From contig CAZUBH010000008.1 of NCBI GenBank assembly GCA_964618505.1, forward strand, positions 15,257-79,256: a DNA stretch of 64,000 nt. The letters run 5' to 3'. Under the pieces are notes generated by a model. The model saw only the letters and a program-made list of their open reading frames with translations, ran no database searches and had not been told where the DNA came from. The position numbers and the translations under genes are program-made. The DNA comes from an uncultured Thermoplasmatales archaeon (GTDB taxonomy: Archaea; Thermoplasmatota; E2; DHVEG-1). Shown one piece after another: positions 15,077 to 60,815 of the stretch; the stretch's first letter is position 1, and each line of letters begins with the position of its first letter.

Positions 15077-16060
15077 TTAACAATTATTTATTGTCCAAAT
15101 CCAATATTCTTCAGGTTTTTGCTTAAATAACCTCATGCACTTTTCAACTGATGTACAGTTGAAAGGTCCTGGGCTTTCAATAGTAGGTTCAAAACATAGG
15201 CCTGCCCAACCAGCTGTTTTACCAGAATATGTTCCTAGATCAAATATTAATCTAGACTCATTTTTACTTAGTGTTGATTTTTCAATTAATTCTAAAAATC
15301 CTTGAGTTTTCCAAACATTGTCATATTCTGATTCGTCAATCGTACCGTTGTTAGAAAAATGATCTTTTATAATTTGTTCTGCTTGTCTACCTAAAAATGT
15401 AAAACCTTTGTAATTGTTAAAAAAACTACCATCTATAAATGGATGCACATCATTCAAATATCTTTGTAAGATATCCCTTTGCTGCTCATCTGTAGAGTAA
15501 ATATTTCCTATAAAATATTGGTCTTCAATAAGTCCTGTTTCTGCCCAATTTCCTCCTGAAAAAGTATGTACATCGTTAAATATAATATACTTTATCGAGG
15601 AATAATTTTCTCTTGTCTTATTCGCAATATTTTTAAATGTGTTGATCACTCTGGCATTCCTTTCATTATCTGGTGTCATCAATGGAAAGAATGAAGATAC
15701 ACAATCAAATCCTGAATAATTTATCATTTCTGATTCAAAGCCAGATTGTGTTGGTTGAACACACAATATTCCATTGTATTTTTGTTTAAGATGTGGTAAA
15801 ACTTCTTGTAACCAAACAGACGTTTCAGAAATATTTTGTTGCATTCCATCTACTTCATTATAAACTGCATAAAACTTTGTATTTAATGATTCAGCCTCTT
15901 CTGCCCAGATATACAGTATATCTTTTAGCTTATATAGAGAAACATCGTTATTTCCCCAATGCATTGTATTTGGAACTAGATGTACATTAAATCCAGCATC
16001 TTCGAATAGTTTAATATAGAATTTAAAGAGATTACTGCCAATAACTGTAGGTTTGTCCAA
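15077..16060 (-). CDS. C-terminal (catalytic) part of a TIM-barrel glycoside-hydrolase-like protein. The reading frame stays open upstream to 16276 with no ATG/GTG start, so it probably continues from the lipoprotein ORF 16209..16535 through a frameshift.
   Basis: The upstream in-frame extension reads ...KLKEIGINTVSFGPD. Motifs FNVHLVP and VYNEVDG resemble clan GH-A strand motifs. The annotated start is TTG. Confidence 0.4.
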   Translation of the reverse strand: MDKPTVIGSNLFKFYIKLFEDAGFNVHLVPNTMHWGNNDVSLYKLKDILYIWAEEAESLNTKFYAVYNEVDGMQQNISETSVWLQEVLPHLKQKYNGILCVQPTQSGFESEMINYSGFDCVSSFFPLMTPDNERNARVINTFKNIANKTRENYSSIKYIIFNDVHTFSGGNWAETGLIEDQYFIGNIYSTDEQQRDILQRYLNDVHPFIDGSFFNNYKGFTFLGRQAEQIIKDHFSNNGTIDESEYDNVWKTQGFLELIEKSTLSKNESRLIFDLGTYSGKTAGWAGLCFEPTIESPGPFNCTSVEKCMRLFKQKPEEYWIWTINNC

Positions 16061-39290: not shown

Positions 39291-40355
39291 TTATAAATCC
39301 CAGAAGGGAACAATGTCGCAACACCCACAGTTATGACACATTGTATTAAAACTTTTTGTCGTTAAATCATTTTTTTCTAAAATTTTTTTATGATTTCTAG
39401 ATAGATAAATCATTCTATCAACATCTACATTGGGCAATTCACAAGAAAGTGATTTTTTCAAATCATCTTTATTTTCACCATTTATTCTAATCTTTCTTAA
39501 TGTAGGAACAACTCCCATGCCTGATAACTTTTTGATGGTTTTTATTATGCTTTCATTTGTTTCTCCAAGTCCAAAGATTATATTGGAACAGACCTTCCCT
39601 CTTCCAAAAACTTTTACCGCCTCTTTAAGCATATTAAATGTCTTGTTATAATCTAAATTTGGACATACCTTCTCAAATAATTCTTTACTGGACGCTTGAA
39701 CATTTATCTTTATTTCATCAAAACCAGATTTTTTAAGATTTGTTAATTCACTCATTTTAAAAATGCAAGATTCAACACCAAATTTAGAACCTGGAATTTT
39801 GTTTCTGACGCCTTCTACTATATAGCACATGTCTTCTACAATTTTTTCATTATTAGGATATACACCGCTTGTGATGGCTATGTTTTTTATGCCACTTTTT
39901 TTTGAGGATTTTAAAATATAATCCACATAATTTTTCTTATCATAATTTTTTGTTTTTTCTTTTTTATCAAAAAAGCAAAATGCACAATTAAAGATACACT
40001 TGTCAGCTAAATTTATAAAAATCTGATTTGGAGCATGATATAATACCGGCAGGATTCTGACATTATTTATAAAAATTTTATTATGCTTTAAAACAGAATA
40101 AATACCATTATTTTCTACTAAAGAAAATCTAGCTTTTTTATTTTTAATAACTCGAAGTTTTATATTGCTTTTATTGAAACAAAATCCTACATTTTTATAA
40201 GAAGAGCTTGGTCCTGCAGAAGATTTATCGTAAGGATAGGGAATTGGTATGCCTCTTTCTATAAATATCTCATCGTCTTCTAATAATTCTGCTTTTATTC
40301 TTAAATTTGCACAATTTTCCACGGATTTCAATAACATAATTGATACTAAAAACAT
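39291..40355 (-). CDS. Radical SAM domain protein.
   Basis: CIFNCAFC (Cx3Cx2C) cluster-binding motif and a C-terminal Cys-rich patch HNCGCCD. No subfamily could be assigned. Confidence 0.65.
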   Translation of the reverse strand: MFLVSIMLLKSVENCANLRIKAELLEDDEIFIERGIPIPYPYDKSSAGPSSSYKNVGFCFNKSNIKLRVIKNKKARFSLVENNGIYSVLKHNKIFINNVRILPVLYHAPNQIFINLADKCIFNCAFCFFDKKEKTKNYDKKNYVDYILKSSKKSGIKNIAITSGVYPNNEKIVEDMCYIVEGVRNKIPGSKFGVESCIFKMSELTNLKKSGFDEIKINVQASSKELFEKVCPNLDYNKTFNMLKEAVKVFGRGKVCSNIIFGLGETNESIIKTIKKLSGMGVVPTLRKIRINGENKDDLKKSLSCELPNVDVDRMIYLSRNHKKILEKNDLTTKSFNTMCHNCGCCDIVPFWDL

Positions 40356-40867: not shown

Positions 40868-41797
40868 ATGAATATTTCTAAAGTTAAAATTATATCATTT
40901 TTCATTCTTTTTCCTCTAATATTTGTAGGATGTTTAGAGCAAAAATCAACTGTTGAAAAAGAAGATGCAATTGAAAAAAATGAAAACATTCTTCCAGAAA
41001 CTTCAATTATTTCAAATACAACAAATGGCATAGCTCCGTTAAGTATTTTTTTTACATGCGATTGCAAAGATTCAGATGGAGAAATTGTAGGTTACTTTTG
41101 GTCTTTTAATGATGGTAACTTTTCCAATCAAAAAAATGTTACTCATACTTTTGAAAAAGCAGGGATTTATGAAGTTTTTTTGTTAGTTACAGATAACAGT
41201 GGAGCTATATCCAATGATACAGTTCTAATCGAGGTTAAACCAAAAATTGCTGAGTGGACTTTATCTCTTATAGGTGCTAAAACAGAAATTATTAATCGAA
41301 GTACTTTTGAGGGTTTTGTATCCGCATATGGAGAATCTTCTTGGGAGGATGAAGGAAATCTTTGGACAGGAATTCCTTTGTGGATTTTAGTATCAATTGT
41401 AGACGATGTCGAAGACAAAGATTATACTTTTAACGAAGATTTAGCAAATCTAGGTTATGAAATCAAAATTACAGCAGGTGATGGATGGATAACAAATCTT
41501 TCAAGTAAAGACATAATAGAAAACCAAGGATATTTGGTTGTAAATAAATTAAATGGAGAGCCTCTCCCAAAATATACACCTAAAGGAAAGCCAAGTTGGC
41601 CTCTTCACTTAAGAGGCGATGAGGTTGTTTGTCCCAACAATGTTGGTAATATTACTGCTATTGAATTAATAGACCTACCAGACGTCAATGAAACTAAAAG
41701 ACCATTCTTTTCAAATATTAAATATTTTTTTAAAAATCTTTTAGAAAATTGGATACAATTTTTTTCTGATATTTTCTCATTTATAAAAAACAATTAA
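40868..41797 (+). CDS. Putative lipoprotein with a PKD domain.
   Basis: Signal peptide plus lipobox FVGC. The PKD-like region reads ISNTTNGIAPLSIFFTCD...WSFNDGNFSNQKNVTHTFEKAGIYEVFLLVTDNSG. Confidence 0.5.
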   Translation: MNISKVKIISFFILFPLIFVGCLEQKSTVEKEDAIEKNENILPETSIISNTTNGIAPLSIFFTCDCKDSDGEIVGYFWSFNDGNFSNQKNVTHTFEKAGIYEVFLLVTDNSGAISNDTVLIEVKPKIAEWTLSLIGAKTEIINRSTFEGFVSAYGESSWEDEGNLWTGIPLWILVSIVDDVEDKDYTFNEDLANLGYEIKITAGDGWITNLSSKDIIENQGYLVVNKLNGEPLPKYTPKGKPSWPLHLRGDEVVCPNNVGNITAIELIDLPDVNETKRPFFSNIKYFFKNLLENWIQFFSDIFSFIKNN

Positions 41798-42264
41798 AAA
41801 ATTCTAGGTATTATTCTATAAGGTACTTTTTCCATATATTTTTCATAATCCTTTCCATATTGTCTAATTAAAAGTTTTTCTTCATCAATTATACTCCAAA
41901 TAATTAGAGGAATTTCAATAATTGCTATTATCAAGGCAAATAGTGAATAAAAAAATAAAGCAAGACCAAATCCAATTATAACTAAGGAGGTATAGTGAGG
42001 ATGTCGTATTGTTTTAAAAATTCCTTCTGTTACAAGCTGGCCTTTATAGGCCTTATGCCAAAAAATTTCCCATTTGAAATAAACAAATGTTCCTATTAAA
42101 AATACTACAATGCCACTTAATATTGTAAAAATCATGTTGAATGGTATTTTCCAAACACCAAAAATTGCGGTTAAAGGACCAGTTAGGATTATTAATAGAA
42201 TAGGCGAATAATGTGCTATAAAAAGTGCTCTTAGAGTTTTTGGTGGCCTGTAGTCTAAAAACAT
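41794..42264 (-). CDS. Isoprenylcysteine carboxyl methyltransferase (ICMT) / phospholipid methyltransferase family membrane protein.
   Basis: A 156-aa protein with 4-5 TM segments carrying the EGIFKTIRHPHY and RHPxY signature of the ICMT/PEMT family. Confidence 0.6.
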   Translation of the reverse strand: MFLDYRPPKTLRALFIAHYSPILLIILTGPLTAIFGVWKIPFNMIFTILSGIVVFLIGTFVYFKWEIFWHKAYKGQLVTEGIFKTIRHPHYTSLVIIGFGLALFFYSLFALIIAIIEIPLIIWSIIDEEKLLIRQYGKDYEKYMEKVPYRIIPRIF

Positions 42265-42269
42265 GTGTT

Positions 42270-43034
42270 TTACACTAGTTTAATTCCACCAGATCCTATT
42301 TCAAAATCTTGTGGTTTTAATGTGTGTTTTGTACTGCGCATTTTTAAAACCGCAAGTTTTCTTCTATCCATTGTTGGATCAACACTCAAAACAATTACTG
42401 CATCTGCTAAAAATTCAGAAAGACCATCTCTTGACATACTTTTTGAGTTTGAAGGCAGTTCCGATGTAACAATAGATGTGCATCTTGCGGTTTCTAAAGC
42501 GTTCATAATGTAATGAAGATGAAGCCTTCTTATTGGAAAGTTGCCATCTGAAGAAAACTCTTCAGGGTTTATTATGTTAATATCGTTTGATTTGGCAATG
42601 TCCATATTATTAATGTAAATTGGCATTTCAGATAAAGGAGTAATTGAATCTAAAACTACACGATCCCAATCTCCAGATAAAATTTCATTTGTCATTGTTT
42701 CATAAATCAATTTCTTGTTGATATTTAGAAATAAAAATTTAACTTGCCCACTGTCTATTGCAGGTTGAAAATCAATATCTAATTCTTTTGATTGAGTTAA
42801 AAGCCCTTCTACTTTTTTGTCAAGTGTTAAAAATAAACATCTGTCTCCTTCTTCAACTCCTTGACGTAGAAACTGAGAACATAATATTGTTTTACCCCCT
42901 CCAGGAGGTCCTGAAACTAGCGTTATTGTTCCTTTGGGTATCCCTCCAGATATTACTTCGTCAAGACCAGGTACACCTGTTTTTACTCTTTCTACCTTAC
43001 TTGTCGTTGCTTTTTCAGTATGAACTAATGACAT
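42270..43034 (-). CDS. KaiC-like single-domain RecA-superfamily ATPase (KaiC-A).
   Basis: GVPGLDEVISGGIPKG; Walker A GPPGGGKT; Walker B RVVLDSIT; catalytic IVTSE. Confidence 0.75.
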   Translation of the reverse strand: MSLVHTEKATTSKVERVKTGVPGLDEVISGGIPKGTITLVSGPPGGGKTILCSQFLRQGVEEGDRCLFLTLDKKVEGLLTQSKELDIDFQPAIDSGQVKFLFLNINKKLIYETMTNEILSGDWDRVVLDSITPLSEMPIYINNMDIAKSNDINIINPEEFSSDGNFPIRRLHLHYIMNALETARCTSIVTSELPSNSKSMSRDGLSEFLADAVIVLSVDPTMDRRKLAVLKMRSTKHTLKPQDFEIGSGGIKLV

Positions 43035-43171
43035 AAAAAAAGGTATATAGTAGCGTGTATAACTATTTTACTTTTTAGGGCTAATTTTATTCTAATATAT
43101 TAATTTTTATGCAAATATTTATATATTTACTAAAATAAATATAATATGGGAAAAGCTCGACGTGTGAAAAA

Positions 43172-43396
43172 ATGTCTAGAAATTTAAAGATATGGATGTG
43201 GATTCAAAACAATCATTTGATTAAGGCCATATCAAATATGGATACTGGAACACTTACAATTTATGACGAAAACGATAATGTACTTGTTAAAAGAACAGGC
43301 CTTTCTAGACAGCAAATTAAAAAAATTGAAATAGTTTTCTCTCATTTTAGTGCAAAAAAATTAGACAAAAATCAGGAACCCTGCACATACCTATAA
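43172..43396 (+). CDS. Small conserved protein S1 of 74 aa; paralog of 47152..47397.
   Basis: KIWMWIQNN...GTLTIYDENDNVLVKRTGLSRQQIKKIE aligns with KTWTWLKSK...GTIEVLNEKGEILIRKTNLSRRQVENVE of the second copy. Confidence 0.45.
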   Translation: MSRNLKIWMWIQNNHLIKAISNMDTGTLTIYDENDNVLVKRTGLSRQQIKKIEIVFSHFSAKKLDKNQEPCTYL

Positions 43397-44158
43397 TATT
43401 GAAACTTGTCTATCGGGATAAACTTCTATGCCATTATTTGTAATTTCCATTCCAAAAATCTTTTTTTGATGATTTGAGTATCTCATTTTTAAAATTTCTA
43501 TAGCGTTTTCTCTTCTATCTCCTCTCTGGATATTGTATAAAACTACAATTCCATCTGCAAGAAACTCCTCGATTCCAGAATCGCTAAATTTTTTTGGAAT
43601 TTGCTCTGTTTCTGTAACTAAGAATGAAGTAGCACCCGTATCTTGAAAAAAACTGAAAAGTTGTTGCAGGTAAACTCTATAATTTTTTTCTTTTGAAATT
43701 GATGCCGATATTACAGCAGTAAGAGAATCAACCACAATTAATTCTGGATTGAAATCCTTGGGTATTATTAAAGGTTTGATTTTATACGAAACTTCAGTTG
43801 CAGATCCAGAGCCTCCAAGAGAACCAAATTTCATTCTAAGAATATCTAAAGGATTAATTTTTTGAACAAGAAATCTACCTTCATCGATATGGCTTTGAAC
43901 ATCCCAACCAAATACATTCATGCTTCTTTTAATTCTATCAATAGATTCTTCAAAACTTACATACATACAATTTTTTCCTTTAGAAATCAGATTATAACAC
44001 ACTTGTCTACAAAAGGTACTTTTTCCCGTCCCTGTTCCGCCAGCAATTAAAACTGAATTTTTTTTAGGTATGCCTTGATTTGAAAATAGACCATCGAATC
44101 CTTTGATATCTGTTTTTAGTGCATCTTCGTTATTTGTCTGATAACTGCCTTCATCCAT
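43391..44158 (-). CDS. KaiC-like single-domain RecA-superfamily ATPase (KaiC-B); FlaH/ArlH-like.
   Basis: IKGFDGLFSNQGIPK; Walker A AGGTGTGKST; Walker B LIVVDSLT; catalytic LVTETE. Confidence 0.75.
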   Translation of the reverse strand: MDEGSYQTNNEDALKTDIKGFDGLFSNQGIPKKNSVLIAGGTGTGKSTFCRQVCYNLISKGKNCMYVSFEESIDRIKRSMNVFGWDVQSHIDEGRFLVQKINPLDILRMKFGSLGGSGSATEVSYKIKPLIIPKDFNPELIVVDSLTAVISASISKEKNYRVYLQQLFSFFQDTGATSFLVTETEQIPKKFSDSGIEEFLADGIVVLYNIQRGDRRENAIEILKMRYSNHQKKIFGMEITNNGIEVYPDRQVSIL

Positions 44159-44176
44159 ATAATAATCTCACAAATT

Positions 44177-45064
44177 TTATTTAATCCATCCTGGCCCTAT
44201 TTGGACATAATATTTTAATACTTTCAAATATACATTTAATTTTCCGCCAGGATTTATATTTTCTATTACCACTCTTGAAGGTTGATGTTCATCTTCACTG
44301 TTTATTACCGTAATTTTTAATAAATCTGAGGATTTTTTAAGATCCTGAAAAGATTCATTCCAAGCATTTGGAAAGTATGTGTTTATTGTAATATTGTCCA
44401 TGTTGTTCCAAAGGGTCTGTGGATTTCCAGTTTCTCTTGAATAGTTAACTCTAATCATACATTTCCCCCATCCTGAGGTCATATTCTTTTGGTCACTAAT
44501 GCCTATGTGAACAGGCAAAGTAAAAGAAACCTTTGGAGGATTGCCTTCGTCCAATGAAACTGAAGCACTTGCACGCGATACCGATTTTCCTGTTGGTTGT
44601 TTAACAAATACTCCTCCGCCTTCTAAAGCATAAGTCTGATCAACAAAATAATAATTATGTGACTCAAATTTTACTGATGTAAGATCAAATTCGGTAGGGT
44701 TGAATATACTCCATAATGTAATCTTACAATTCTCATCCTGAACAATACTTAAATCACCAGTTGCTCTTGCCGTCACAAAATATGGTAGTTCCCTACTTCC
44801 AAGTGTAATCATAGAAGTTAACGGGTCTGAGGAATTTGTCATCTGTTGGATATTCATCATTGATTTTAAATATGTAAATTGATTTGAAATAACATCCATA
44901 TGCTCGGCTTCTTTTTGCTCCATAATCTCTGGTATGTATACAAGTTGTATTGTTGAAAGAATAATAGCTACTAGTGCTACTAATAAAAGAGCCTCAATTA
45001 CACCTGCAACAGCATTATTTTTTGAAATTAAATCTATTTTTTTCATCTCTCCAGTCTTTTCCAT
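44177..45064 (-). CDS. Membrane-anchored protein with a type IV pilin-like hydrophobic N-terminus and a beta-rich extracellular domain.
   Basis: The N-terminus KKIDLISKNNAVAGVIEALLLVALVAIILSTIQLV resembles archaeal pilin/ArlF-G class III signal regions. No canonical cleavage motif was confirmed. Confidence 0.35.
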   Translation of the reverse strand: MEKTGEMKKIDLISKNNAVAGVIEALLLVALVAIILSTIQLVYIPEIMEQKEAEHMDVISNQFTYLKSMMNIQQMTNSSDPLTSMITLGSRELPYFVTARATGDLSIVQDENCKITLWSIFNPTEFDLTSVKFESHNYYFVDQTYALEGGGVFVKQPTGKSVSRASASVSLDEGNPPKVSFTLPVHIGISDQKNMTSGWGKCMIRVNYSRETGNPQTLWNNMDNITINTYFPNAWNESFQDLKKSSDLLKITVINSEDEHQPSRVVIENINPGGKLNVYLKVLKYYVQIGPGWIK

Positions 45065-45106
45065 ATTGTTTGACTATAACTTATATTTTTTCTAAATAAA
45101 TTTCAT

Positions 45107-46993
45107 TTATTTTTTCTTTAACCACAATAGAAATAACCCAATTGCACTAATAATTATTAAAACTTCAAAAACCACAATAAAATGAAATGGAATTTGTAAA
45201 GAAATCCCTTTAACAGATTGACCCGCGTCATCATTTTTTGAACCAGTTTCTGATATTATTACATAGGTTTGTGTAGTTGAAGTTGATTGGTTGTCATCTT
45301 TTATTGTCAATGAGACAGTAAAATTACCATAGCTTTGATATTTGTGGCTAGTTGTCGACCCTTCACCATTTGCCCCATCACCAAAATTCCATAAATATTG
45401 AATTATCTCTCCATCTTCATCAATACTAAGCGTTCCATCAAAATTAATATCTTCATCTATTTTTGCATAATAGGGGCCATTAATAATTGCTGTTGGTTTG
45501 ATATTTTCTGATATTTCTTCCTTGCTAATAGCTAAATTTTGGGTTACTTGTGTAGACCATTTTTCATCATTATCTTTAACCTGAAAATATATTGCATGAT
45601 TACCAATAGATAAATCAGATGTGTTAAAAGATTTGTTTGTACTTATTATACCATCAATACTTGAGGTCCATTTCCATCCTATGATTTCGCCATCGTCTGT
45701 ACCATATCCATTAAAAGATATTGTTTCACCTATTAATGCAGGATTGGGGTTAATTGATTCAATAAATGCTATTGGTTTTTCATTTTGTTTAGGATTAATT
45801 GTTAATGATTTTGATGTTTCTGAAGACCATTCTCCATAATCATCTTTAACTTTAAAGTAAATAGTATGCTCTCCAACAGATAAACTTGATTTTGTAAACG
45901 AACTTGAACTGCTTAAAAAACCATCGATGTTTGAACGCCAATTATAATCGGTTATTATACCATCTGAGTCTGCCCCACTACCACTAAAAGAAATCTCATC
46001 TCCATAATAAGCTACATTAGGCGATATGCTAGGTTGATGAGCTGTGGGGGCTTGATTTTGAGGATCTACCGGATCATCTTCTTGTAAAAAATAACCTAAA
46101 GGGTAGTTATCGGTGTTGCTTCCACCAGGTATTTGGTAAGCAGAGTCTCCAATGCCATCTTCATTAGAATCATAATCGTTGTAGTCGTCCCAATAATTTC
46201 CCTGATTTGCACCATTGTCCCATGAATTTGAAAATGGATCGTATGCATTTTCGCTATTGTCTGTAAAATCATTATTGTAAAAGGTATTGCTTGAAGAGGA
46301 TTGGGATAAATATACTCCAAACCCAGTATTTTGGCTTAGTGTATTTCCGATGATATTATTGTCTATTGAAAATGAAGAAAGCTTAATTCCATTCCCATTT
46401 TCATTTATTACGTTATCTTCAACAGTATTTCCTGTTGAAAACTCTATATGAATGCCACTAACTGCATTGTTTGAAATAATATTATTGCTAATGGTAAGAG
46501 AGTTGCAATCAAATAAAGAAAATCCTTCTCCCTGATCACTATTAATTATTCTGTTATTTTCAATAACTGAATTTTCAACTTTAGACATTGTAAGACAATC
46601 AAATCCGGATCCGCCCGCATTTCTAATTGTAAGGCCAGAAATTGATACCTCGATGTGATCACTACCCACAACTTCTATAACATGACCATTGCTTCCGCCA
46701 TCAATAAAAGTATTATCCCTACTTTGTCCGGTTAGTGTAAGGTCTTTTGTTATTTCGATTTTTTCATTGTATGTTCCTGAATAGATATATATTGTATCTC
46801 CTTCATCTGCTTCAGAAATTGCTGAATTTATGTCCATGAAAGGATTTTGTTGAGTTCCATCCCAAGGCCCACTGTCATTATCATCATCAACATATAAAGT
46901 GTTTCCAGATGCTTTTGATAAGTTCGTTGATGTGCTTAAAATAAATAATAGAAGAATAATCGAAAATAAATTAATAAGACTAAGTTTGTGCAT
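45107..46993 (-). CDS. Surface protein with a signal peptide, a NosD-like right-handed beta-helix, three PKD-like domains and a C-terminal TM anchor.
   Basis: Beta-helix repeats (GLTIRNAGGSGFD, NNIISNNAVSGIHIE, NVINENGNGIKL) with the GNYWDDYN...DGIGD motif. PKD-like repeats (YFKVKDDYGEW, YFQVKDNDEKW, SLTIKDD). C-terminal TM segment FIVVFEVLIIISAIGLFLLWLKKK. Confidence 0.65.
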   Translation of the reverse strand: MHKLSLINLFSIILLLFILSTSTNLSKASGNTLYVDDDNDSGPWDGTQQNPFMDINSAISEADEGDTIYIYSGTYNEKIEITKDLTLTGQSRDNTFIDGGSNGHVIEVVGSDHIEVSISGLTIRNAGGSGFDCLTMSKVENSVIENNRIINSDQGEGFSLFDCNSLTISNNIISNNAVSGIHIEFSTGNTVEDNVINENGNGIKLSSFSIDNNIIGNTLSQNTGFGVYLSQSSSSNTFYNNDFTDNSENAYDPFSNSWDNGANQGNYWDDYNDYDSNEDGIGDSAYQIPGGSNTDNYPLGYFLQEDDPVDPQNQAPTAHQPSISPNVAYYGDEISFSGSGADSDGIITDYNWRSNIDGFLSSSSSFTKSSLSVGEHTIYFKVKDDYGEWSSETSKSLTINPKQNEKPIAFIESINPNPALIGETISFNGYGTDDGEIIGWKWTSSIDGIISTNKSFNTSDLSIGNHAIYFQVKDNDEKWSTQVTQNLAISKEEISENIKPTAIINGPYYAKIDEDINFDGTLSIDEDGEIIQYLWNFGDGANGEGSTTSHKYQSYGNFTVSLTIKDDNQSTSTTQTYVIISETGSKNDDAGQSVKGISLQIPFHFIVVFEVLIIISAIGLFLLWLKKK

Positions 46994-47151
46994 TCAAATC
47001 CCTTCCATCTCTCATTTGTAAGATTAGATAGTTACTATATATAAATATGATGGTGAAAAACGTCAAAACGTAATAATATTTTAACTAGCTATAAGGGGAA
47101 TGTTTATAAAGGTACAAATTAACATCAATTTGTAAGTGAAAAGTGACCCTG

Positions 47152-47397
47152 ATGAAAAGCGAAAAAACCTGGACATGGCTTAAATCAAAAGGAAAAATCT
47201 TTAAGATCATTTCAAACCCGGCGAAAGGAACAATTGAAGTCTTGAATGAAAAAGGTGAGATTTTAATTAGAAAAACAAACCTTTCTAGAAGACAAGTTGA
47301 AAATGTTGAAAAAAATTTTTTAAATATGATTTCTAAAAAATCAAATGAAAACTGTGAATTAAAATCAAATCAAAATTTTGACCCCATGATAGCTTAA
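47152..47397 (+). CDS. Small conserved protein S2 of about 81 aa; paralog of 43172..43396.
   Basis: See S1. The start is chosen at the ATG that aligns with the S1 start; the ORF track used the GTG at 47143. Confidence 0.45.
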   Translation: MKSEKTWTWLKSKGKIFKIISNPAKGTIEVLNEKGEILIRKTNLSRRQVENVEKNFLNMISKKSNENCELKSNQNFDPMIA

Positions 47398-47426: not shown

Positions 47427-49442
47427 CTAATTTCTATTTTTTTTTATTTTTTTCACTAAAGCAATAGTTATCAGTAAGAAAAATAATGGTAAAATTTCAA
47501 ATCCAGGAGTTGGTTTTGATATAGTTGGCTCTGGCACTTTCAACGGCTCTGAGGATTCCAGCTTTTCATAGATAATTGCATATGTAGATTCAATCACAAA
47601 AGTATCGTTTTTATCTGACACTATTAAATTAATTGAATAATTTCCAGATTTTGTATATCTATGGATTGGGTCTTTTATATTACTTGATGAATTATCTCCA
47701 AAATCCCAGTAATAAGTGTAATTTATATTTTTATTATCTGATAAATTGCCACCGTTTGTTTTTATATTGTCTTTTCCTGTCAAAATTAATATAATTTCAG
47801 TAATGTTGCAATGAAATTGAATGCTTTCATTTTCATATCCAGAATATGGCCCTCCTAAATCAACAAAAAATGATATGCTTGAAAGGGACATGTTTGATTC
47901 ATTTTCGTCATTTAATTCAACAATAACATATGTTGTATCAATATCCGTTTCTCCTGAATCATCTTTTACCTCAAGGCTAATAGTATGGTTTCCTGGTGTA
48001 AATGATTTTGTTGCTGTAGAAAAACCTAGATACATTTGATATTCCCCAAAACCATCATTTTCAAAATCCCATCTATATAACAAATTCTCTCCATCAGGAT
48101 CATAACTTCCCGAAGCATCAAAAACAACAGTTTCGGATTCACTAAAATATGGCCCTCCTGCATCAGCGATAGGAGGAATGTTGTCTTCGTTGTCGGTGAT
48201 AGTAACAGCGGCCGTATCTGTATCAGTTGCTCCTTCATCATCTTTTACTTCGATTTTTACAGTATAGATGCCACTTTCTGAATAGCTGTGGGAAAATGTA
48301 TTAGGCGGAAACCATCCTGTGTCATAAACACCATCATTTGTCCAATCCCATCTATAATATTCAATAATACCATCAGTATCTATACTATTTCTACCATCAA
48401 AATATATTAGTTCTTCAATTTCTGCACTATATGGCCCCCCTGCATCAGCTATTGGCGGTTGGTTTATTTCATTAAATATACCCAACGGATACCTATCTTC
48501 TCCATTACCCCAATAGATTTCATATGCAGTGTCTCCAATGCCATCTTCATCTGCATCAACTCCTTCATAATCATCCCAATAATTACCACCTAAGGGATAT
48601 CCATTGTCCCATATATTGTTTATACCATAATTTTTAACATTATTGTTAGGATAATTATTATCATTGAAATGATTGTAATAAATCTTATTATTTGAAGAAT
48701 ACGTACTAGCGAGTAGTCCTCCATCAATATTATTTTCGATATAATTTCCAATAATATCTGAATCATCACCATCTAATATTATACCAAATCCATTATTATT
48801 TATAACATTATTATTGGATATTTCAACATCGGAGCAAGATTGCCAAATCTTTATGCCATGATCGTTTTGAGAAATTGTGTTGTAACTGATTGTATTTTCA
48901 GAACCAGAGGAGATACCAATTCCAGGATATCCATTATTCTCAATAGTATTAGAATTAATTGAATTATAACTTCCAGATATCCAAATTCCCCCAAAACCAT
49001 TACCGGGATACTCAAGACCATTTCCTGAAATAATATTGTTCTGAATACTATTAGAATCCGAAGATACTTTGATACCGCAAGCAGAACTACTGCTCCCTCC
49101 GTTAACAATTGAAAAACCGCTGAGCGAAATCCCATCTTCATTTAATTGAACGGGCCAGTAATAATCTTCTGAATCTATAATCGTTGTTTGTTTGTTTTCT
49201 CCAGTTATTGAAATTGATATGTCAACAGCGATGTGTTCATAATAAGTACCGCTATAGACATAAATCGTATCGCCATTACTAGCTGCATCAATAGCATCTT
49301 GAATACTTGTATAATCTAGTCCACCATCATCATCAACATAAATTGTATCAGAAGCTTTAATAATATTATTTGAAAATCCAGAATAAATAGTTACGCCCAT
49401 AAGAAAAAAAACTATAAGAATTATTATTTGTTTTTTCATCAC
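47427..49442 (-). CDS. Surface protein with a signal peptide, a NosD-like beta-helix, PKD-like domains and a PGF-CTERM archaeosortase sorting signal.
   Basis: Beta-helix repeats with GGNYWDDYEGVDADEDGIGD. The C-terminus KPTPGFEILPLFFLLITIALVKKIKKNRN is the PGF-TM-basic tripartite signal. Confidence 0.7.
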   Translation of the reverse strand: MMKKQIIILIVFFLMGVTIYSGFSNNIIKASDTIYVDDDGGLDYTSIQDAIDAASNGDTIYVYSGTYYEHIAVDISISITGENKQTTIIDSEDYYWPVQLNEDGISLSGFSIVNGGSSSSACGIKVSSDSNSIQNNIISGNGLEYPGNGFGGIWISGSYNSINSNTIENNGYPGIGISSGSENTISYNTISQNDHGIKIWQSCSDVEISNNNVINNNGFGIILDGDDSDIIGNYIENNIDGGLLASTYSSNNKIYYNHFNDNNYPNNNVKNYGINNIWDNGYPLGGNYWDDYEGVDADEDGIGDTAYEIYWGNGEDRYPLGIFNEINQPPIADAGGPYSAEIEELIYFDGRNSIDTDGIIEYYRWDWTNDGVYDTGWFPPNTFSHSYSESGIYTVKIEVKDDEGATDTDTAAVTITDNEDNIPPIADAGGPYFSESETVVFDASGSYDPDGENLLYRWDFENDGFGEYQMYLGFSTATKSFTPGNHTISLEVKDDSGETDIDTTYVIVELNDENESNMSLSSISFFVDLGGPYSGYENESIQFHCNITEIILILTGKDNIKTNGGNLSDNKNINYTYYWDFGDNSSSNIKDPIHRYTKSGNYSINLIVSDKNDTFVIESTYAIIYEKLESSEPLKVPEPTISKPTPGFEILPLFFLLITIALVKKIKKNRN

Positions 49443-49475
49443 ATCTCTCCAAATTATTAATAATTTTATGCTTAA

Positions 49476-50699
49476 TTAATACATGCGGTTTTTTTCAATT
49501 TTAAAAAAGAAGGGGGAAGAATTACTCCAAGGTTTGATTAAAGGATAATTATCTTGATTATCCCCACCAGATATGTTGTAAGGCGTATCTCCAATGCCAT
49601 CACCATCTTCATCTGATCCAGTATAATCAATCCAGTAATTTCCTGACTCTCCGTCATCCCAAGTATTTGAACCAGTATCGTAAGCAGTTTCCCAACCAGC
49701 TCCTAAAAAGTTATTATTTACAATAGTATTGAAATCCGAGTTTAAATGAAGATATATATTTCTAAGACTACAAAATCCAATAGTATTACTTCTAATAATA
49801 TTGTTCGGCGAATGTTCAAGTAGTATTCCAATTTGTGAAATATCTGAAAGTAAGTTATAATCAATTAAACAATTTGTAGATAATTCTAAAGCAACTGCAT
49901 AAGTACATTGTTTAATTTCGTTATTAATAATTGAAACATTAGATGAATCTTGTACTAAAATACCTGCTTTATAAGCTCCACTATTTTGAATTGTAAATCC
50001 ACCAATAACAACAGAATCTGCTAGAATATCAACTACATGGTCTTGGTTATTACCATCAATGAAAACAAGACTTTTATCATGGCCTATCAACATTATCTCT
50101 TTATCTATTACAATATTTTCAAAATATAATCCATCATCAACATGAACTGTACCTTGTTCAGCTACAACATCTATACCATCTTGAATTGTATCAAAATGAT
50201 CAAAACCCCAACCAGTAGTATTTTCATTAAAATCATCATCAATATAAACATAATCTGGAGCTGAAGATTGTATAAACACCTGAAATTCATAAGAATCGTA
50301 TATAATTTGTTCTAAATAGTCTCCACAAAAAATTATATATTTATATTCGCCAGCTGAAAAATCTTCAGGTATTGATTGGGTTATTTCCATGCTTATTCCG
50401 CCATAAGGTCTAAGTCTAATATCCATAAAAGATTTAATCGGACCTAAAAAATGACCATTCGGCTCATGTTGGTACATAATCCACGCATCAACAGTTATAA
50501 ATTCAGCTTCAAAATTTCTTAACATGCCTGTATATTTGAATGATTCTCCCTGATAAACTTCTATAGGTAAATCAATCAAAATACAAATTCCTACATCATT
50601 AGTACTTGATATAGCGATTGGGATTATTGGTAGAAATAAAAGTGTTACCGTAAGTCCCAAAATGCATATTTTTCTAAATTTGTTTTTCATCTTTTTCAT
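49476..50699 (-). CDS. Secreted protein with an N-terminal about-120-aa domain (paralogous to 50848..51276) followed by a NosD-like beta-helix.
   Basis: Signal peptide. The beta-helix region reads GGFTIQNSGAYKAGILVQDSSNVSIINN and GNYWIDYTGSDEDGDGIGD. Confidence 0.55.
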   Translation of the reverse strand: MKKMKNKFRKICILGLTVTLLFLPIIPIAISSTNDVGICILIDLPIEVYQGESFKYTGMLRNFEAEFITVDAWIMYQHEPNGHFLGPIKSFMDIRLRPYGGISMEITQSIPEDFSAGEYKYIIFCGDYLEQIIYDSYEFQVFIQSSAPDYVYIDDDFNENTTGWGFDHFDTIQDGIDVVAEQGTVHVDDGLYFENIVIDKEIMLIGHDKSLVFIDGNNQDHVVDILADSVVIGGFTIQNSGAYKAGILVQDSSNVSIINNEIKQCTYAVALELSTNCLIDYNLLSDISQIGILLEHSPNNIIRSNTIGFCSLRNIYLHLNSDFNTIVNNNFLGAGWETAYDTGSNTWDDGESGNYWIDYTGSDEDGDGIGDTPYNISGGDNQDNYPLIKPWSNSSPFFFKIEKNRMY

Positions 50700-50847: not shown

Positions 50848-51276
50848 CTATATTACATTAACAAGAATCTCATCGGTATCATATACAGTGTCTGGATATA
50901 CGCCAATATGAGTCCTATATTTGTAATAAGGCTCACTTGGAGGAAAATCTTCAGGCACATCCTGAATTAAATTACTGAATCTAAAACCATCAAAAATTCT
51001 AACATTTTTAAATAATTTTACAGGACAAATATACTCGCCATTAGGACCTTCAACTGTAATCCAAACATCATGAAATACATATGTTCCATATCCTTCATAA
51101 TCCCAAATAACTAATATATAATCAAACGACCCTCCAGGATGTACACTAATTTCTTCAATTCCATTAAATCTTACAAATACTTTATCTGTGCCAGCTTGGC
51201 ACGTGATGCTGCATGAGATGGTCAACATAATTGTAATCAGACCTAACAAATTTAAAGTCCTATATCTTTTCATCAT
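50848..51276 (-). CDS. Small secreted protein of 142 aa; stand-alone paralog of the N-terminal domain of 49476..50699.
   Basis: Signal peptide. GGSFDYILVIWDY...EGPNGEYICPVKLFKNVRI...DVPEDFPPSEPYYKY aligns with GESFKYTGMLRNF...HEPNGHFLGPIKSFMDIRL...SIPEDFSAGEYKY. Confidence 0.45.
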   Translation of the reverse strand: MMKRYRTLNLLGLITIMLTISCSITCQAGTDKVFVRFNGIEEISVHPGGSFDYILVIWDYEGYGTYVFHDVWITVEGPNGEYICPVKLFKNVRIFDGFRFSNLIQDVPEDFPPSEPYYKYRTHIGVYPDTVYDTDEILVNVI

Positions 51277-51380: not shown

Positions 51381-51454
51381 TGGGCCCGGCAGGATTTGAA
51401 CCTGCGGCCATCTGGTTATGAGCCAGACGCTCCGCCAGACTAAGCTACGAGCCC
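51381..51454 (-). tRNA. tRNA with anticodon CAU: elongator tRNA-Met, or tRNA-Ile2 if C34 is agmatidinylated.
   Basis: Minus-strand sequence GGGCTCGTAGCTTAGTCTGGCGGAGCGTCTGGCTCATAACCAGATGGCCGCAGGTTCAAATCCTGCCGGGCCCA. Anticodon stem TCTGG/CCAGA with loop CTCATAA, T loop TTCAAAT. CCA is not encoded. Confidence 0.8.
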
Positions 51455-56624: not shown

Positions 56625-59600
56625 TTACATCCATGCGTCAAGACCAGTTTGTTGGGTAGGCATTTCAACGGATAATCCAAATGCTCCTTGTATGTAATTT
56701 TCAATCATTTTTTTATACCAATCAAGATCAATTTCGTTTGTAGATTTTAGATAGTCAATTGGACACATGTAATCAATGGGTTTTACACCACTTTTAGATG
56801 GGTTTGTTATACCTGGAAGAGGTCTTTTTGTGACAACAAATTTAAGTTTAGCTCTCGATTTTATCTGTCTTCCAATTACTTTTTCTAGGGCCATTGCTCT
56901 TTTAGCAAAAGTAGAAGGGCTTCCGTCTTGATTTAATTTATATCTTCTTGCCGGCTGAACAGACTGAATTAATGTTAAATCCTCTATATCAACTGTTGAT
57001 AAGTCAAGTTTTTCTAAAACTTCTTTTGTTTTTTCCATTATAGCATTTTTTACAGATTTTCTTGCTTCTTCTTCATCATCCCAAGATGTATTCTCCTTTA
57101 TTACTTTAATCATGATTTCTTTTAGAACTTTCCTTGCAATGTTTGCTTTATCAGAACCTTTAAAATTGTTTCCTTTTGTATTCATTTCTAGTTTGCCATT
57201 TTTACTATCAAAAATTAAATAATTCTTATGTTTTACAAAAATCATTGAATCGTGTTTTTCAGGTTCTAGTTCAAAATCAGGATAATTTAAATCTTTTTGC
57301 CATTTTTTATTACAATCTTCAATCGCATTTAGGGCTATCTCTGGCTTTGTTATCCATTTATCTTCATTAATTTCAATATTCAAACTTAAAGATTTAGAAA
57401 TTTCAGTTACATTTCCAGCTGATTTAGAACATCCAAGATAAATTCCATCCGTATCTCCATATACAACTCTTATACTTTTTTTCTTTAAGTAATCTAAAGC
57501 ATCTGCAAGAATAATTTGTCCTTTTGTTGTAATTGCGGCTGCACCCCACAAATTAAATTGCCTACCTGTAACAGTTGGTGCAGAAAGTATTCCATGTGTA
57601 TTGTGTAAAATAATCCCTCCGTTTGCATCTATAAAATTTTCATTTCCTTCTATACTTAGGTCATATACATATTCAGAACTGGGATCAACATATTCTATAT
57701 GTTTTGGCGGGATAGCATAACAATCGTTACATGATTGTTTGTTACCTTTGTAATAACCAATCATCCTTGTGTTATACGTCTGATCATATTGCCTAAAATA
57801 TGTGTTGGTTTTTACACCCCATTGTTTTTGAAGTGTTATTAAATCCGCATTTAGACTTTGGCTATTTGTTGTGAATCTTCCATGTGGTACAGAAGATGGC
57901 ATTGAAAACTTAATATTACCATCACCTTTCATATATGCATCAAAAAATGCTCTTCTTACCGGTTCTTTAGAAGATAGTATTTGCCAAGGAATTTGTTTAC
58001 ATCTACTTGAGCTACCACATGATAAAATGCTATCAAAAAGATAATCAACAATTTTAGCATGAAGTGTTGACACATAAGTATGTGCATCTTCAAGCCTATT
58101 TATTGTATAAACTGGGGCGCCAAGAATCTCATTAGAAAGTTTTCTAATTCTTTCATGCATTTCTTTTTGTGAATTTGAAAAAGTTATATAATAGCTAGAA
58201 TGGCCATTTACCACCTTTCTTGAAGTGTGGCCTTCAGATATATAATATCCAATAAGTTCTGCTAATCTTTCATCAATAGAAATTTTTGATTTTATTCTGC
58301 TTGATTTTCTTCCATTTGATCCAACGGTAATATAATCATATAAATCATCTTTAAATTGAATATTTTTAAGTTTATCGAGAGGTACTTTAATATACGGCAA
58401 AAGAACGCTATCTTTTAACTTTATATTCATCAATTTATTTTTTAGCCTGCTATTAAAATGAATAAGATCATTTTTTTCGATAAAAGCAAAGAAATCAGTA
58501 CTATTTGCTTCCTTGCATAAATTGATATCGTGTTTTTTTTCAATGGAGGGAATCTTTTCTACATGAGCTAAAAGTGTTTTTTCATTAATTTCTGCTACGT
58601 TAATTTCTTGCATTCCTCCATCTTTTATAGTAAAAACACTATGATTTGGAGTAACTACGGTAAAACCACTTTTGGTAGTAATTTTAATAAGTTTTTTTGA
58701 CCATTTATGCCGAACGACTTGCTTTATTTTTTTTATTTCAGCTTTTCCATTTTTATTTACAGATATTGCTTGCCAATTCTCATCAATTTCTGAAATTTCA
58801 AACTGTGTTCCGTTAATATTTTCAATTCTACAACCTTTCTGTATAAAGGAATCAACGAATTCTCCAATAGGTTTATTGATCAAGTATCCGTCTGGTGAAA
58901 CTAATATCACTTGTTGGCCATAGTCAACACTTCCGGCATTACGAGCACCTTTCATGCTTTGATACATCATTTTGAGCCTGTTAATTTCAGATTTATCATT
59001 TTTATTTTTAGACTCTTTTAATTCTTGTTTTATTTTTGAAATCATATTCATAATGCCAGTCATTGAAAGATTAACGACACCTGGTTTTCTGTCTATTTTA
59101 ACACCTATCATATATCCTTTATCTGCATAAGAGTCGGCGCTTTCTACTTCTCGCCAGTTGACATCGATCTCATTAAAAAACTGTTTAGGCATCTTTTTAA
59201 GCCATATCCATTCATCAGGTTTTTCGTTTTTACAAGCAAGTTTTACAGTATCTGCGCCAATGTTCAAAGCTTTCAATATAGTGGGATACATTGCACCAAC
59301 ATCGGCAACTAAAACGTAATACCAAGGTACAAAATGAGAATTAGCATCTTTATCTGGTTTTATTGTCATTCCGCCAGGCATATGATAACTTATTGTATCG
59401 TCTGAATCTTTTGGATTTTCGTTAAATACAACATATGGGCATTCCACCCAATTAGGCATCTCATTACCATATTTAATAACTCTTAAAACATCCTTTGCAA
59501 GCATATCCTTTTGTTTTTTTGCTTTACTTACAATTTCGGATTTTGTGTTACAATCTCTAAAATACTTAGTTAGATTTTGTGTGATTGATTTAACTCTACA

Positions 59601-60815
59601 TATGGGCGGCATAATTTTTTTATGTTTACTACTTCTTATCATCGACATGTGGTCCCACATATTTACCGCGCCAGATGGAAGAAGCATATCAAATGGCATA
59701 CATGTTGTAAATGCAAGGGGCAAAGCTTGTTGTATTAGATTTATTGTTACTCCGGTTTGTTCCTGTATATCTTGCTTATTGTATTTCATTGTTCTTTTAT
59801 CTAGTTTTATTTCTGATGGACTAAGATAAACCCTGTCTTTTATGTCAATTCCAAGAAAAGGTGCCAAAAATTTAAGTCCATACTCGTTCAAGAAAGGATA
59901 AAATTTTCTTGCTGCAAGAAATGTATCAAAATTTGAAGGATACATTTGTACAACATCCGTACCAGTTCCAAAATGAAAACTTTTGTCTGATTTACAATAA
60001 TTATTTACGAAATAATGCAGTTCTTTTTTTTCTTCATTTGATATTTTGCTATGATGTTCTTTTAATAACAACTTTATTCTATTATATAATTGGATATTGT
60101 CAAAGCCTGTTATATTGTGTCCTGATATAATGTCGTATTTTTTTGCCACCCTGCAAAATTCTGTGATATTCTTTATTTCTTCATCAATGTTTGGAGAGAC
60201 AAGTTGCTTTATTTCTATGTTCTCAAAATCAGAAGGACAATCAATTATTTCAAAACTAAATTCTTCCGTTTCCAAGTCCTTTTTTGATTCAAATTTTATT
60301 TTAAAATCAGAGTAACCTATTATATCTATGGGTATGTCGCTTTTCCCTTCAGAAAATTGAGTTGTTTCAATATCATAAATTAATACTTTTAAATCCTTTT
60401 TTTGTCCTTTGGAATCAAAAATCCACCCCATATCTTGAGCAGCTATATCTGTTAAAGATCGTTGCTGATAGGGTATATCATGTTCTGCAGTAAAAACCCC
60501 ATGTTCAAAAAATAAATAGTCACTCACTTCAGGAACAAAATATGACTCTTTTGTAAAAACTTTGAATACATTTCTTTTCTGTTCAAAATCACAAAAACTT
60601 CTATATTCTTCAATTTCTCCAAAATCAATTATTTTTGAAAGTTTTTCATGATTATTTTTATTTAAATTCCAACGTTCAATTAATTCTTTTCTTTTTTTTT
60701 CAGCACTTTTTTCTTGAGGAACGATAGCTAAAAAATACGGATTGTGAACATCTGAAATTTTCTTTGGTTTTTCATTTTGAAAATAAAGCGAATCTTGAGA
60801 TATTCCTAGTAACAT
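56625..60815 (-). CDS. polB: Family B DNA polymerase (PolB) interrupted in-frame by one 444-aa LAGLIDADG intein.
   Basis: Exonuclease motifs YDIETT and SGHNITGFD. Motif A is YYVLVADVGAMYPTIL, motif C is VVYGDTDGIYL. The extein is 952 aa in total. The intein lies in the motif B region (see the separate intein feature). Confidence 0.9.
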   Translation of the reverse strand: MLLGISQDSLYFQNEKPKKISDVHNPYFLAIVPQEKSAEKKRKELIERWNLNKNNHEKLSKIIDFGEIEEYRSFCDFEQKRNVFKVFTKESYFVPEVSDYLFFEHGVFTAEHDIPYQQRSLTDIAAQDMGWIFDSKGQKKDLKVLIYDIETTQFSEGKSDIPIDIIGYSDFKIKFESKKDLETEEFSFEIIDCPSDFENIEIKQLVSPNIDEEIKNITEFCRVAKKYDIISGHNITGFDNIQLYNRIKLLLKEHHSKISNEEKKELHYFVNNYCKSDKSFHFGTGTDVVQMYPSNFDTFLAARKFYPFLNEYGLKFLAPFLGIDIKDRVYLSPSEIKLDKRTMKYNKQDIQEQTGVTINLIQQALPLAFTTCMPFDMLLPSGAVNMWDHMSMIRSSKHKKIMPPICRVKSITQNLTKYFRDCNTKSEIVSKAKKQKDMLAKDVLRVIKYGNEMPNWVECPYVVFNENPKDSDDTISYHMPGGMTIKPDKDANSHFVPWYYVLVADVGAMYPTILKALNIGADTVKLACKNEKPDEWIWLKKMPKQFFNEIDVNWREVESADSYADKGYMIGVKIDRKPGVVNLSMTGIMNMISKIKQELKESKNKNDKSEINRLKMMYQSMKGARNAGSVDYGQQVILVSPDGYLINKPIGEFVDSFIQKGCRIENINGTQFEISEIDENWQAISVNKNGKAEIKKIKQVVRHKWSKKLIKITTKSGFTVVTPNHSVFTIKDGGMQEINVAEINEKTLLAHVEKIPSIEKKHDINLCKEANSTDFFAFIEKNDLIHFNSRLKNKLMNIKLKDSVLLPYIKVPLDKLKNIQFKDDLYDYITVGSNGRKSSRIKSKISIDERLAELIGYYISEGHTSRKVVNGHSSYYITFSNSQKEMHERIRKLSNEILGAPVYTINRLEDAHTYVSTLHAKIVDYLFDSILSCGSSSRCKQIPWQILSSKEPVRRAFFDAYMKGDGNIKFSMPSSVPHGRFTTNSQSLNADLITLQKQWGVKTNTYFRQYDQTYNTRMIGYYKGNKQSCNDCYAIPPKHIEYVDPSSEYVYDLSIEGNENFIDANGGIILHNTHGILSAPTVTGRQFNLWGAAAITTKGQIILADALDYLKKKSIRVVYGDTDGIYLGCSKSAGNVTEISKSLSLNIEINEDKWITKPEIALNAIEDCNKKWQKDLNYPDFELEPEKHDSMIFVKHKNYLIFDSKNGKLEMNTKGNNFKGSDKANIARKVLKEIMIKVIKENTSWDDEEEARKSVKNAIMEKTKEVLEKLDLSTVDIEDLTLIQSVQPARRYKLNQDGSPSTFAKRAMALEKVIGRQIKSRAKLKFVVTKRPLPGITNPSKSGVKPIDYMCPIDYLKSTNEIDLDWYKKMIENYIQGAFGLSVEMPTQQTGLDAWM
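57600..58931 (-). mobile_element. Intein (444 aa) in polB motif B (region III) with a LAGLIDADG homing-endonuclease domain.
   Basis: The intein begins with Ser: NAG|SVDYGQQVILV. Block B is TPNH. Two LAGLIDADG-type motifs are present (LAELIGYYISEGH and FFDAYMKGDGN). The C-terminus is ILHN|THG with the +1 residue Thr. Both junctions keep the frame (N-extein 628 aa, C-extein 324 aa). Confidence 0.8.

Follow-up and report, generated by a model that had tools for sequence, protein, structure and literature searches.

Two small paralogous genes, here termed S1 and S2, lie in a stretch of 64,000 nucleotides from an uncultured Thermoplasmatales archaeon (GenBank assembly GCA_964618505.1, contig CAZUBH010000008.1, forward-strand positions 15,257 to 79,256; hereafter the window), which is AT-rich (~31% GC). 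Each S gene is transcribed divergently from the start of a minus-strand operon and ends convergently against the 3′ end of the next, a geometry described in an earlier note on this DNA and borne out by the list of open reading frames (ORFs). S1 diverges from the gene for a KaiC-like protein, KaiC-A, which is followed in its operon by a gene for an ICMT/PEMT-like membrane protein, while S2 diverges from a beta-helix/PKD surface-protein gene, after which come the genes for a pilin-like membrane protein and a second KaiC-like protein, KaiC-B (Table 1). We refer to this set of genes as the module. The earlier note had also aligned the two small proteins over nearly their whole length, and they are indeed paralogs, with 22 of 65 aligned residues identical (34%; 63% positives; BLASTP E 4e-13); the consensus that it gave (W.W...ISN...GT...LSR.Q....E) agrees with the family alignment. 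On tblastn searches of the whole window, S1 and S2 returned only each other (E 2e-11 and 3e-11), the next-best matches having E values above 0.1; thus, there are exactly two copies, the similarity of which is far beyond chance.

On the sequence evidence, S1 and S2 truly encode proteins, because their dN/dS values of 0.11 and 0.12, respectively (Nei-Gojobori, 26-27 orthologs), indicate purifying selection and because each has a conserved putative promoter (see below); these small, soluble proteins form an archaeal family without earlier annotation. The same method gave values of 0.05-0.07 for the KaiC and ICMT genes (KaiC-A 0.06, KaiC-B 0.05). For S2, an alternative GTG start is present at 47143 (47143..47397, 84 residues); the 81-residue version starting from ATG is the gene call in public data (P0001, 100% identical).

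The arrangement of the module is strongly conserved in related genomes. One scan of GTDB species genomes gave 26 loci, to which exact-protein look-ups added eight; the locus scans were done with narrow subfamily alignments, and the window proteins were placed on the related loci by tblastn. The 26 GTDB loci are labelled Thermoplasmatota, Thermoplasmata, Thermoplasmatales, Methanobacteriota, Euryarchaeota or uncultured archaeon, one being 'Thermoplasmatales archaeon SM1-50', which belongs to the MBG-D/Thermoprofundales group. S1, KaiC-B and S2 occur in the same order and orientation in all 22 GTDB loci with sufficient flanking sequence, and the ICMT-like gene and KaiC-A are also kept in each of the 20 that extend far enough. 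Identities across the loci are highest for KaiC-B (73-81%), followed by KaiC-A (61-77%), the ICMT-like protein (66-75%), S2 (52-69%) and S1 (48-62%). The pilin-like gene is absent from seven loci and the beta-helix gene from six (L005/6, L014, L022, L024, L025 and L032), with S2 still present; in loci missing either gene, KaiC-B is itself divergent from S2. Since the surface genes come and go while KaiC stays, it is with the KaiC-like ATPases, not the surface proteins, that the S genes are consistently associated. The module sits between a ribosomal protein operon (L3, L4 and others) and the genes for the primase large subunit and thymidylate kinase. By its gene order it is vertically inherited core genome, with the composition ICMT-like gene and KaiC-A, S1, KaiC-B (with or without the pilin-like gene and the beta-helix adhesin gene) and S2.

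The repeated unit of a small gene and a divergent operon that was noticed earlier is therefore real as well as strongly conserved, and homologs of S1 and S2 are not randomly distributed, KaiC-A, S1, KaiC-B and S2 being kept together in related loci. The accompanying proposal, that each small protein is a dedicated regulator or chaperone duplicated together with its target cluster, survives in part. The synteny in 22 of 22 loci makes a dedicated partnership between the S genes and the module very likely; however, the target would be a KaiC-like ATPase instead of the surface genes, and the low identity between KaiC-A and KaiC-B (26%) points to an old pairing, not a recent block duplication.

Both KaiC-A and KaiC-B belong to the KaiC family by their PF06745 matches and Walker A and B motifs, but KaiC-A lacks the catalytic Glu-Glu pair that KaiC-B has. 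In the 23 orthologs of KaiC-A, the Walker A (GPPGGGKT) and Walker B (VVLDSITP) motifs are conserved, and a conserved TLDKK replaces the Glu-Glu pair. Because the Walker motifs are kept while the catalytic pair is replaced, KaiC-A probably binds ATP but hydrolyses it poorly, a behaviour resembling that of ArlH, which is reported to bind ATP without hydrolysing it (PMC8978795). In KaiC-B, the Walker A (GGTGTGKS), catalytic (FEES) and Walker B (LIVVDSLT) motifs are invariant in 26 orthologs, an insert at approximately residues 101-133 is highly conserved, and the protein is encoded by the most conserved gene of the module. Neither is identified as ArlH, the scores with the ArlH model NF052589 (cutoff 215 bits) being 50 bits for KaiC-A and 64 bits for KaiC-B; arlI, arlJ and che genes, including those for methyl-accepting chemotaxis proteins (MCPs), CheW and CheA, are absent from the window. 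The occurrence of a degenerate KaiC-A and an active-type KaiC-B as separate genes may be seen as reminiscent of a split two-domain KaiC.

Among the other module members, the ICMT/PEMT-like protein has several hydrophobic segments, consistent with multiple transmembrane (TM) segments, and its gene is co-operonic with that of KaiC-A (5-nucleotide gap). The N-terminal helix of the pilin-like protein (AVAGVIEALL[LM]VALV) is invariant among its orthologs, of which six of eight give a weak Pilin_N match (E 0.06-0.08, below the cutoff) and five of eight match DUF7289 (best E 6.7e-6). The beta-helix/PKD protein encoded between S2 and the pilin-like gene has a signal peptide and a C-terminal TM segment, and is predicted to be secreted and C-terminally anchored. 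S1 and KaiC-B converge with their 3′ ends overlapping by 6 nucleotides (43391..43396); in loci L003 and L007 the two genes likewise overlap or are less than 10 nucleotides apart.

Table 1. Features of the window discussed in the text (positions are those of the window; aa, amino acids; nt, nucleotides)
Feature	Coordinates	Strand	Description	Evidence
S1	43172..43396	+	74 aa, ATG start; small cytoplasmic protein (predicted)	ORF list
S2	47152..47397	+	81 aa from the ATG at 47152; S1 paralog with the same domain	ORF list
KaiC-A	42270..43034	-	single-domain KaiC-like P-loop protein	PF06745, E 9e-44
ICMT/PEMT-like protein	41794..42264	-	membrane carboxyl-methyltransferase-like protein	PEMT 38.9 bits (cutoff 25); ICMT 26.9 bits (cutoff 24)
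KaiC-B	43391..44158	-	single-domain KaiC-like ATPase	PF06745, E 7e-54
Pilin-like membrane protein	44177..45064	-	one N-terminal TM segment; optional module member	
NosD/right-handed beta-helix + PKD surface protein	45107..46993	-	optional, variable module member	Pfam
Divergent intergenic region 1	43035..43171		between KaiC-A and S1	sequence; conservation in 20-23 orthologous regions
Divergent intergenic region 2	46994..47151		between the beta-helix/PKD gene and S2	sequence; motif kept in 24 orthologous regions
Second NosD/beta-helix + PKD protein	47427..49442	-	3′ end 29 nt from the end of S2	Pfam
Secreted protein	40868..41797		PKD only	Pfam
Secreted protein	49476..50699		NosD/beta-helix only	Pfam
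Secreted protein	50848..51276		142 aa	no Pfam match
tRNA	51381..51454	-	between the surface-protein genes and the primase large-subunit gene	Rfam RF00005, 68.7 bits
Family-B DNA polymerase ORF with intein	56625..60815	-	1396 aa	Intein_splicing, E 1.8e-21

Promoters were assigned throughout by sequence conservation. In the first divergent intergenic region, S1 is preceded by a putative B recognition element (BRE) and TATA box, AAATATTTATATA, with the TATA at ~43118-43125, 54 nucleotides before the ATG. On the opposite strand, a conserved block, GCGTGTATAACTATTTT, is located at 43053-43069; its position only ~20-35 nucleotides upstream of the KaiC-A start suggests that the KaiC-A mRNA is leaderless. 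In the second region, the putative promoter of S2, AATGTTTATAAA, has its TATA at ~47103-47110, 49 nucleotides before the ATG, and a second conserved TATA-containing block (~47033-47047) is a candidate promoter of the minus-strand operon. The consensus for the S1-family promoter is ATG.AAAT[AG]TTTATATATT, with the TATA typically 38 nucleotides (range 16-62) from the ATG, and that for the S2 family, present in 24 orthologous regions, is TCG.AATGTTTATATAC..TAAAT.AAC, with the TATA typically 49 nucleotides from the ATG. Common to the upstream regions of S1 and S2 are AAT[AG]TTTATATA and a downstream A/T-rich stretch, TAAAT.AA..AAAATATA; this shared sequence is explicable as core promoter plus initiation region, and no separate palindrome common to the two was found. 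The shared operator that the earlier note suggested looking for in the two regions was therefore not seen as an element distinct from the core BRE/TATA and the A/T-rich stretch.

The database has more than 140 clusters related to S2, at 52-69% identity and with lengths of 81-86 residues in almost every case, and 13 clusters of ~75 residues related to S1, in addition to the 26 S1 orthologs in the loci; S1/S2 clusters that bear organism names are labelled Thermoplasmata, Thermoplasmatales or Thermoplasmatota. S1, S2 and seven relatives had no Pfam or NCBIfam match, even at E 10. A family profile gave nothing significant against PDB sequences, the best match being a winged helix-turn-helix (wHTH) repressor (E 0.62), which is not significant and conflicts with the predicted strands. 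When 1.84 billion representative proteins were searched exhaustively with a profile, just 131 were recovered at E≤1e-3, almost all of them stand-alone proteins of 65-100 residues. Within an incomplete coverage of the literature, we found no family model, solved structure or paper describing the S family, nor papers on DUF7289, on DUF5658, or on Thermoprofundales together with KaiC. Thus, whereas the association of KaiC-like ATPase modules with pilus, archaellum or signalling genes is already known, the small tail-bearing partner and its duplication inside a two-KaiC module are new.

AlphaFold2 (AF2) models of S1 and S2 have an identical topology, with four beta strands (residues 5-12, 15-22, 27-31 and 37-41) followed by one helix that runs in both paralogs from residue 46 to ~64-66, the remainder having a predicted local distance difference test (pLDDT) score below 50. 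For S1, the mean pLDDT is 80.8, with values of 89-95 in the core, the domain covering residues 5-64 and the tail being below 50; for S2, the mean is 72, with values of 83-91 in the core and below 50 for the tail (residues 67-81). Foldseek searches with these models gave no confident structural neighbour (best E 0.14). The four-strand and one-helix topology, lacking such a neighbour, argues against the ribbon-helix-helix (RHH), AbrB-like or wHTH folds which had been raised earlier as candidates; RHH, AbrB/SpoVT and wHTH folds are absent from both models, the cores of which are predicted with pLDDT values of 83-95, and there was no match to a Pfam DNA-binding family at E≤10. Nor do the S proteins show the Pfam WGR profile match together with the conserved Trp-Gly-Arg motif that characterise the WGR domain of PARP-1, PARP-3 and bacterial WGR proteins. 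S1 and S2 have no TM segment or signal peptide in their sequences and are predicted to be cytoplasmic.

On the basis of these models and the family alignments, the S proteins consist of three parts, namely a ~62-residue domain formed by a four-stranded beta meander and a long helix, a flexible linker of variable length, and a conserved C-terminal peptide. In the domain, Trp7, Trp9, Gly26, Leu44 and Glu53 (S2 numbering) are invariant or near-invariant and Phe56 is highly conserved. The linker has from 0 to ~45 residues and varies in composition; that of S2 has ~12 residues and is variable. The extreme C terminus is FDPM[IV]x in 137 sequences of the S2 type (FDPMIA in the window) and EPFx[YF]L in 41 of the S1 type (EPCTYL in the window); a third subfamily ends in [DN]PM[YF]x and a fourth in ..[GA]MYIR (hereafter the ...YIR subfamily). 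These end peptides are hydrophobic/aromatic and invariant within each subfamily. As judged from the alignments, a variable linker followed by an invariant end peptide is the architecture of a tethered docking peptide.

More distant relatives occur beside archaellum and chemotaxis genes. Loci of the ...YIR subfamily were obtained by exact look-ups and one metagenome scan, and their neighbours were identified by Pfam, NCBIfam and tblastn. In the first context (~12 loci: L041/42, L044-47, L050-52, L055, L060 and L066), the order is arlH, arlI, arlJ, a REC(-HEAT-HTH) gene, in some cases a DUF5658 membrane-protein gene, the S gene, and then a gene for a surface protein with TSP3 repeats or with PEGA/PGF-CTERM features. 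The archaellum genes are bona fide, with scores of 222 bits for arlH (cutoff 215), 674 for arlI (cutoff 550) and 503 for arlJ (in L047, ArlH at 222 is followed by ArlI at 674); in L050, cheW-cheF-cheY-cheB-cheA lie 3 kb downstream. In the second context (~12 loci: L036-40, L053/54, L056, L058/59 and L061/62, one of them from 'Candidatus Methanospirareceae archaeon'), the S gene stands in the arrangements MCP-[158-172-residue protein]-S-CheW-CheF-like-CheB-CheA-CheY-CheC-CheC-CheD, MCP-CheW-S, MCP-S-CheW or MCP-S. Within the che and arl operons, the ...YIR members are co-directional with their neighbours. The window and the distant loci are parallel in that a set comprising a KaiC/ArlH-type ATPase, a REC protein, an S protein and secreted surface proteins recurs.

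The REC component in the Thermoplasmatota lineage is a REC-only response regulator with a canonical acidic pocket. In a sister clade (15 GTDB loci and L003), its gene follows S2 co-directionally at a distance of ~120 nucleotides (8379-8756 in L003; equivalent position in L013, L015, L016 and L021-L032). The protein is 73-88% identical between species; the window and its nearest relatives have no such gene at this place.

Two unassigned neighbours recur in the distant loci. In full che operons, an acidic, internally repeated protein of 158-172 residues with no family match is always encoded between the MCP and the S-like gene (e.g. L036 5013-5489; L038 5162-5680), and near archaellum genes a DUF5658 membrane protein of ~120 residues is encoded directly upstream of the S-like gene (L042 1397-1768; L051 6588-6971; L052 3750-4121; L055 820-1176).

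KaiC-like ATPases have been proposed as central archaeal signalling hubs, and ArlH is essential for the archaellum, although little is known of what they interact with or bring about (PMC4858521, PMC8978795); comparative genomics could not identify a second component for the majority of KaiC-like ATPases in archaea (PMC4858521), and the mode of action of ArlH is likewise largely unknown (PMC8978795). With a probability of roughly 0.45, we infer that S1 and S2 are cytoplasmic protein-protein adaptors of a KaiC-centred signalling module, an inference that extends to physical binding, to the pairing of S with KaiC and to the output. The flexibly tethered C-terminal peptide would dock either onto the ring of a KaiC/ArlH-type ATPase or onto a signalling protein associated with it, leaving the folded domain to bind a second partner. 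Signal input, from REC proteins or chemoreceptors, and a pilin-like surface apparatus might in this way be connected through S proteins with the state of the KaiC-like ATPases as regards nucleotide or phosphorylation, a role functionally similar to that of KaiB for KaiC. Archaeal REC signalling is reported to proceed mainly via protein-protein interactions (PMC5847659). The predicted lack of a DNA-binding fold, the fact that no shared operator distinct from the core promoter was seen, the existence of acidic, co-directional relatives, and the conservation of KaiC but not of the surface genes together favour an adaptor over a transcription factor or a surface-protein chaperone.

Several observations weigh against an adaptor role at KaiC. 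Many members in the che context have no KaiC gene in the sequenced flank, and their partner could be an MCP, CheW or CheF. Some [DN]PM[YF]x members occur in unrelated contexts resembling a sugar-modification cluster or a virus: P0242 (L035) is clustered with genes for radical-SAM, LicD and aminotransferase proteins, and P0253 (L069/L070) and P0235 (L068) lie in virus- or element-like runs of small ORFs on one strand. The partial correlations from a mirror-tree analysis (KaiC-A/S2 0.74, KaiC-A/KaiC-B 0.62, KaiC-B/S2 0.49, KaiC-A/S1 0.46), which are confounded by shared phylogeny, do not single out the adjacent S/KaiC pairs. In addition, S1 and S2 are basic (pI ~9.3-9.5), which, with their divergent transcription, also fits a DNA-binding autoregulator.

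That last point bears on the possibility, which we consider unlikely, that S1 and S2 are small DNA-binding regulators of the divergent KaiC and surface-protein operons, and possibly of themselves. Some JGI records do call homologs 'predicted nucleic acid-binding protein', each S gene is divergent from the adjoining operon across a conserved intergenic region, and the idea keeps some weight because S1 and S2 are both basic and divergently arranged. However, the AF2 fold and the Pfam searches described above give no indication of a DNA-binding domain, the sequence common to the two promoters can be accounted for by BRE/TATA and A/T-rich initiation sequence, and the basic character does not extend through the family, two more distant subfamilies being acidic (pI ~5). 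A regulator of divergent operons is also hard to reconcile with the ...YIR members, which run in the same direction as the other genes of the che and arl operons that contain them, and operator-binding proteins do not typically carry a flexibly tethered, conserved C-terminal peptide.

The S family might alternatively be primarily a component of chemoreceptor arrays, binding MCP, CheW or CheF, with the Thermoplasmatota copies being a secondary recruitment for which proximity to KaiC does not reflect direct interaction. The MCP-S, MCP-S-CheW and MCP-CheW-S adjacencies in ~12 loci are as this would predict, as is a second S-like stretch in L054, which again directly follows an MCP gene. Nevertheless, such a primary role seems quite unlikely, given that S1 and S2 are strongly conserved in a window without MCP, CheW or CheA, and that ...YIR members also occur directly after arlHIJ with no MCP gene within ~3 kb. 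A role as cytoplasmic chaperones or assembly factors for the pilin-like and beta-helix/PKD proteins, e.g. in holding them before membrane insertion, is very unlikely, for although S2 adjoins the surface-protein operon in the window, and ...YIR members are often followed by unrelated secreted proteins with TSP3 repeats, PEGA domains or PGF-CTERM anchors, the module can do without the surface genes, S1 and S2 being unchanged where these are missing, many relatives are flanked solely by cytoplasmic chemotaxis genes, and the surface proteins beside different family members are unrelated to each other.

If S proteins are adaptors of KaiC/ArlH-type ATPases, they can be compared with several known systems. 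As with KaiB, they are small stand-alone proteins encoded beside a KaiC-family ATPase, and, as with KaiB and the predicted KaiB-like or DEATH-like second components (PMC4858521), they are proposed to sense which state the ATPase is in and to relay this to response-regulator signalling. In contrast to KaiB, which has a thioredoxin-like beta-alpha-beta fold, the S proteins have neither sequence nor fold similarity to it. The archaellum protein ArlH (FlaH), with ArlCDE and CheF, shares with the module a common gene theme, i.e. a KaiC-like ATPase, a pilin-like membrane protein, REC/Che signalling and surface filaments, and ...YIR members are found directly after arlH-arlI-arlJ and beside CheW and CheF-like genes. 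The module nonetheless differs from that system in the low ArlH scores of its KaiC proteins and in the gene content of the window, and searches of Pfam and NCBIfam relate S to no Arl or Che family.

Known C-terminal tethers provide a further comparison. Proteasome activators carry such a tether in the form of the HbYX motif (hydrophobic-Tyr-any as the last three residues). CheR and CheB are recruited to E. coli chemoreceptors by the pentapeptide NWETF, and CheZ binds CheY through its own C-terminal peptide. The S proteins share with these a flexible linker and a short invariant hydrophobic/aromatic end, the analogy being one of mechanism only. Only the [DN]PM[YF]x subfamily literally fits the HbYX pattern, whereas S2 has Ile/Val in place of Tyr (M-[IV]-x), S1 ends in x-[YF]-L, and in the ...YIR subfamily the Tyr is followed by two residues.

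The co-conservation of an ICMT-like enzyme with the module bears on the C-terminal peptide, in that the ICMT family methylates a C-terminal alpha-carboxylate. It is conceivable, albeit a long shot, that S is a tail-docking second component of KaiC/ArlH-type ATPases, the invariant C-terminal peptide of which is a substrate of the ICMT-like enzyme, reversible methyl-esterification then gating docking to KaiC rings. Were this so, C-terminal methylation would amount to a chemotaxis-like adaptation acting on a protein C terminus instead of on receptor glutamates.

An adaptor role, if true, would provide the first functional hypothesis for proteins now called 'hypothetical' in more than 150 database clusters, which have no Pfam or NCBIfam model. 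S genes adjoin KaiC-like ATPases in Thermoplasmatota, and arlHIJ or chemoreceptor/CheW genes in other archaea, and the family, being compact (75-90 residues) and easily expressed, is a testable candidate for what connects KaiC/ArlH-type rings with sensory input on the one side and with surface filaments or adhesins on the other. A defined peptide motif thereby becomes available for binding studies.

With respect to other possible origins of the family, among L035, L057, L068 and L069/L070 some members are in one-strand runs of short ORFs or beside thymidylate synthase, radical-SAM or LicD genes, which could be viral or mobile-element contexts. A viral origin was considered and rejected, scans of viral contigs with the S2, ...YIR and ...PM[YF]x subfamilies all being negative. 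We also rejected a role as precursor of a ribosomally synthesised and post-translationally modified peptide matured by the product of a neighbouring radical-SAM gene (39291..40355), since that gene occurs in some of the loci but not in others, and since S begins with a predicted folded domain, not a leader peptide.

In the surroundings of the module, Rfam searches over the region revealed no non-coding RNA other than the tRNA in Table 1. The secreted-protein genes differ between related genomes, and none of the relatives checked had the pair 47427..50699 in the corresponding place. In the window, the genes for secreted proteins listed in Table 1 are concentrated locally.

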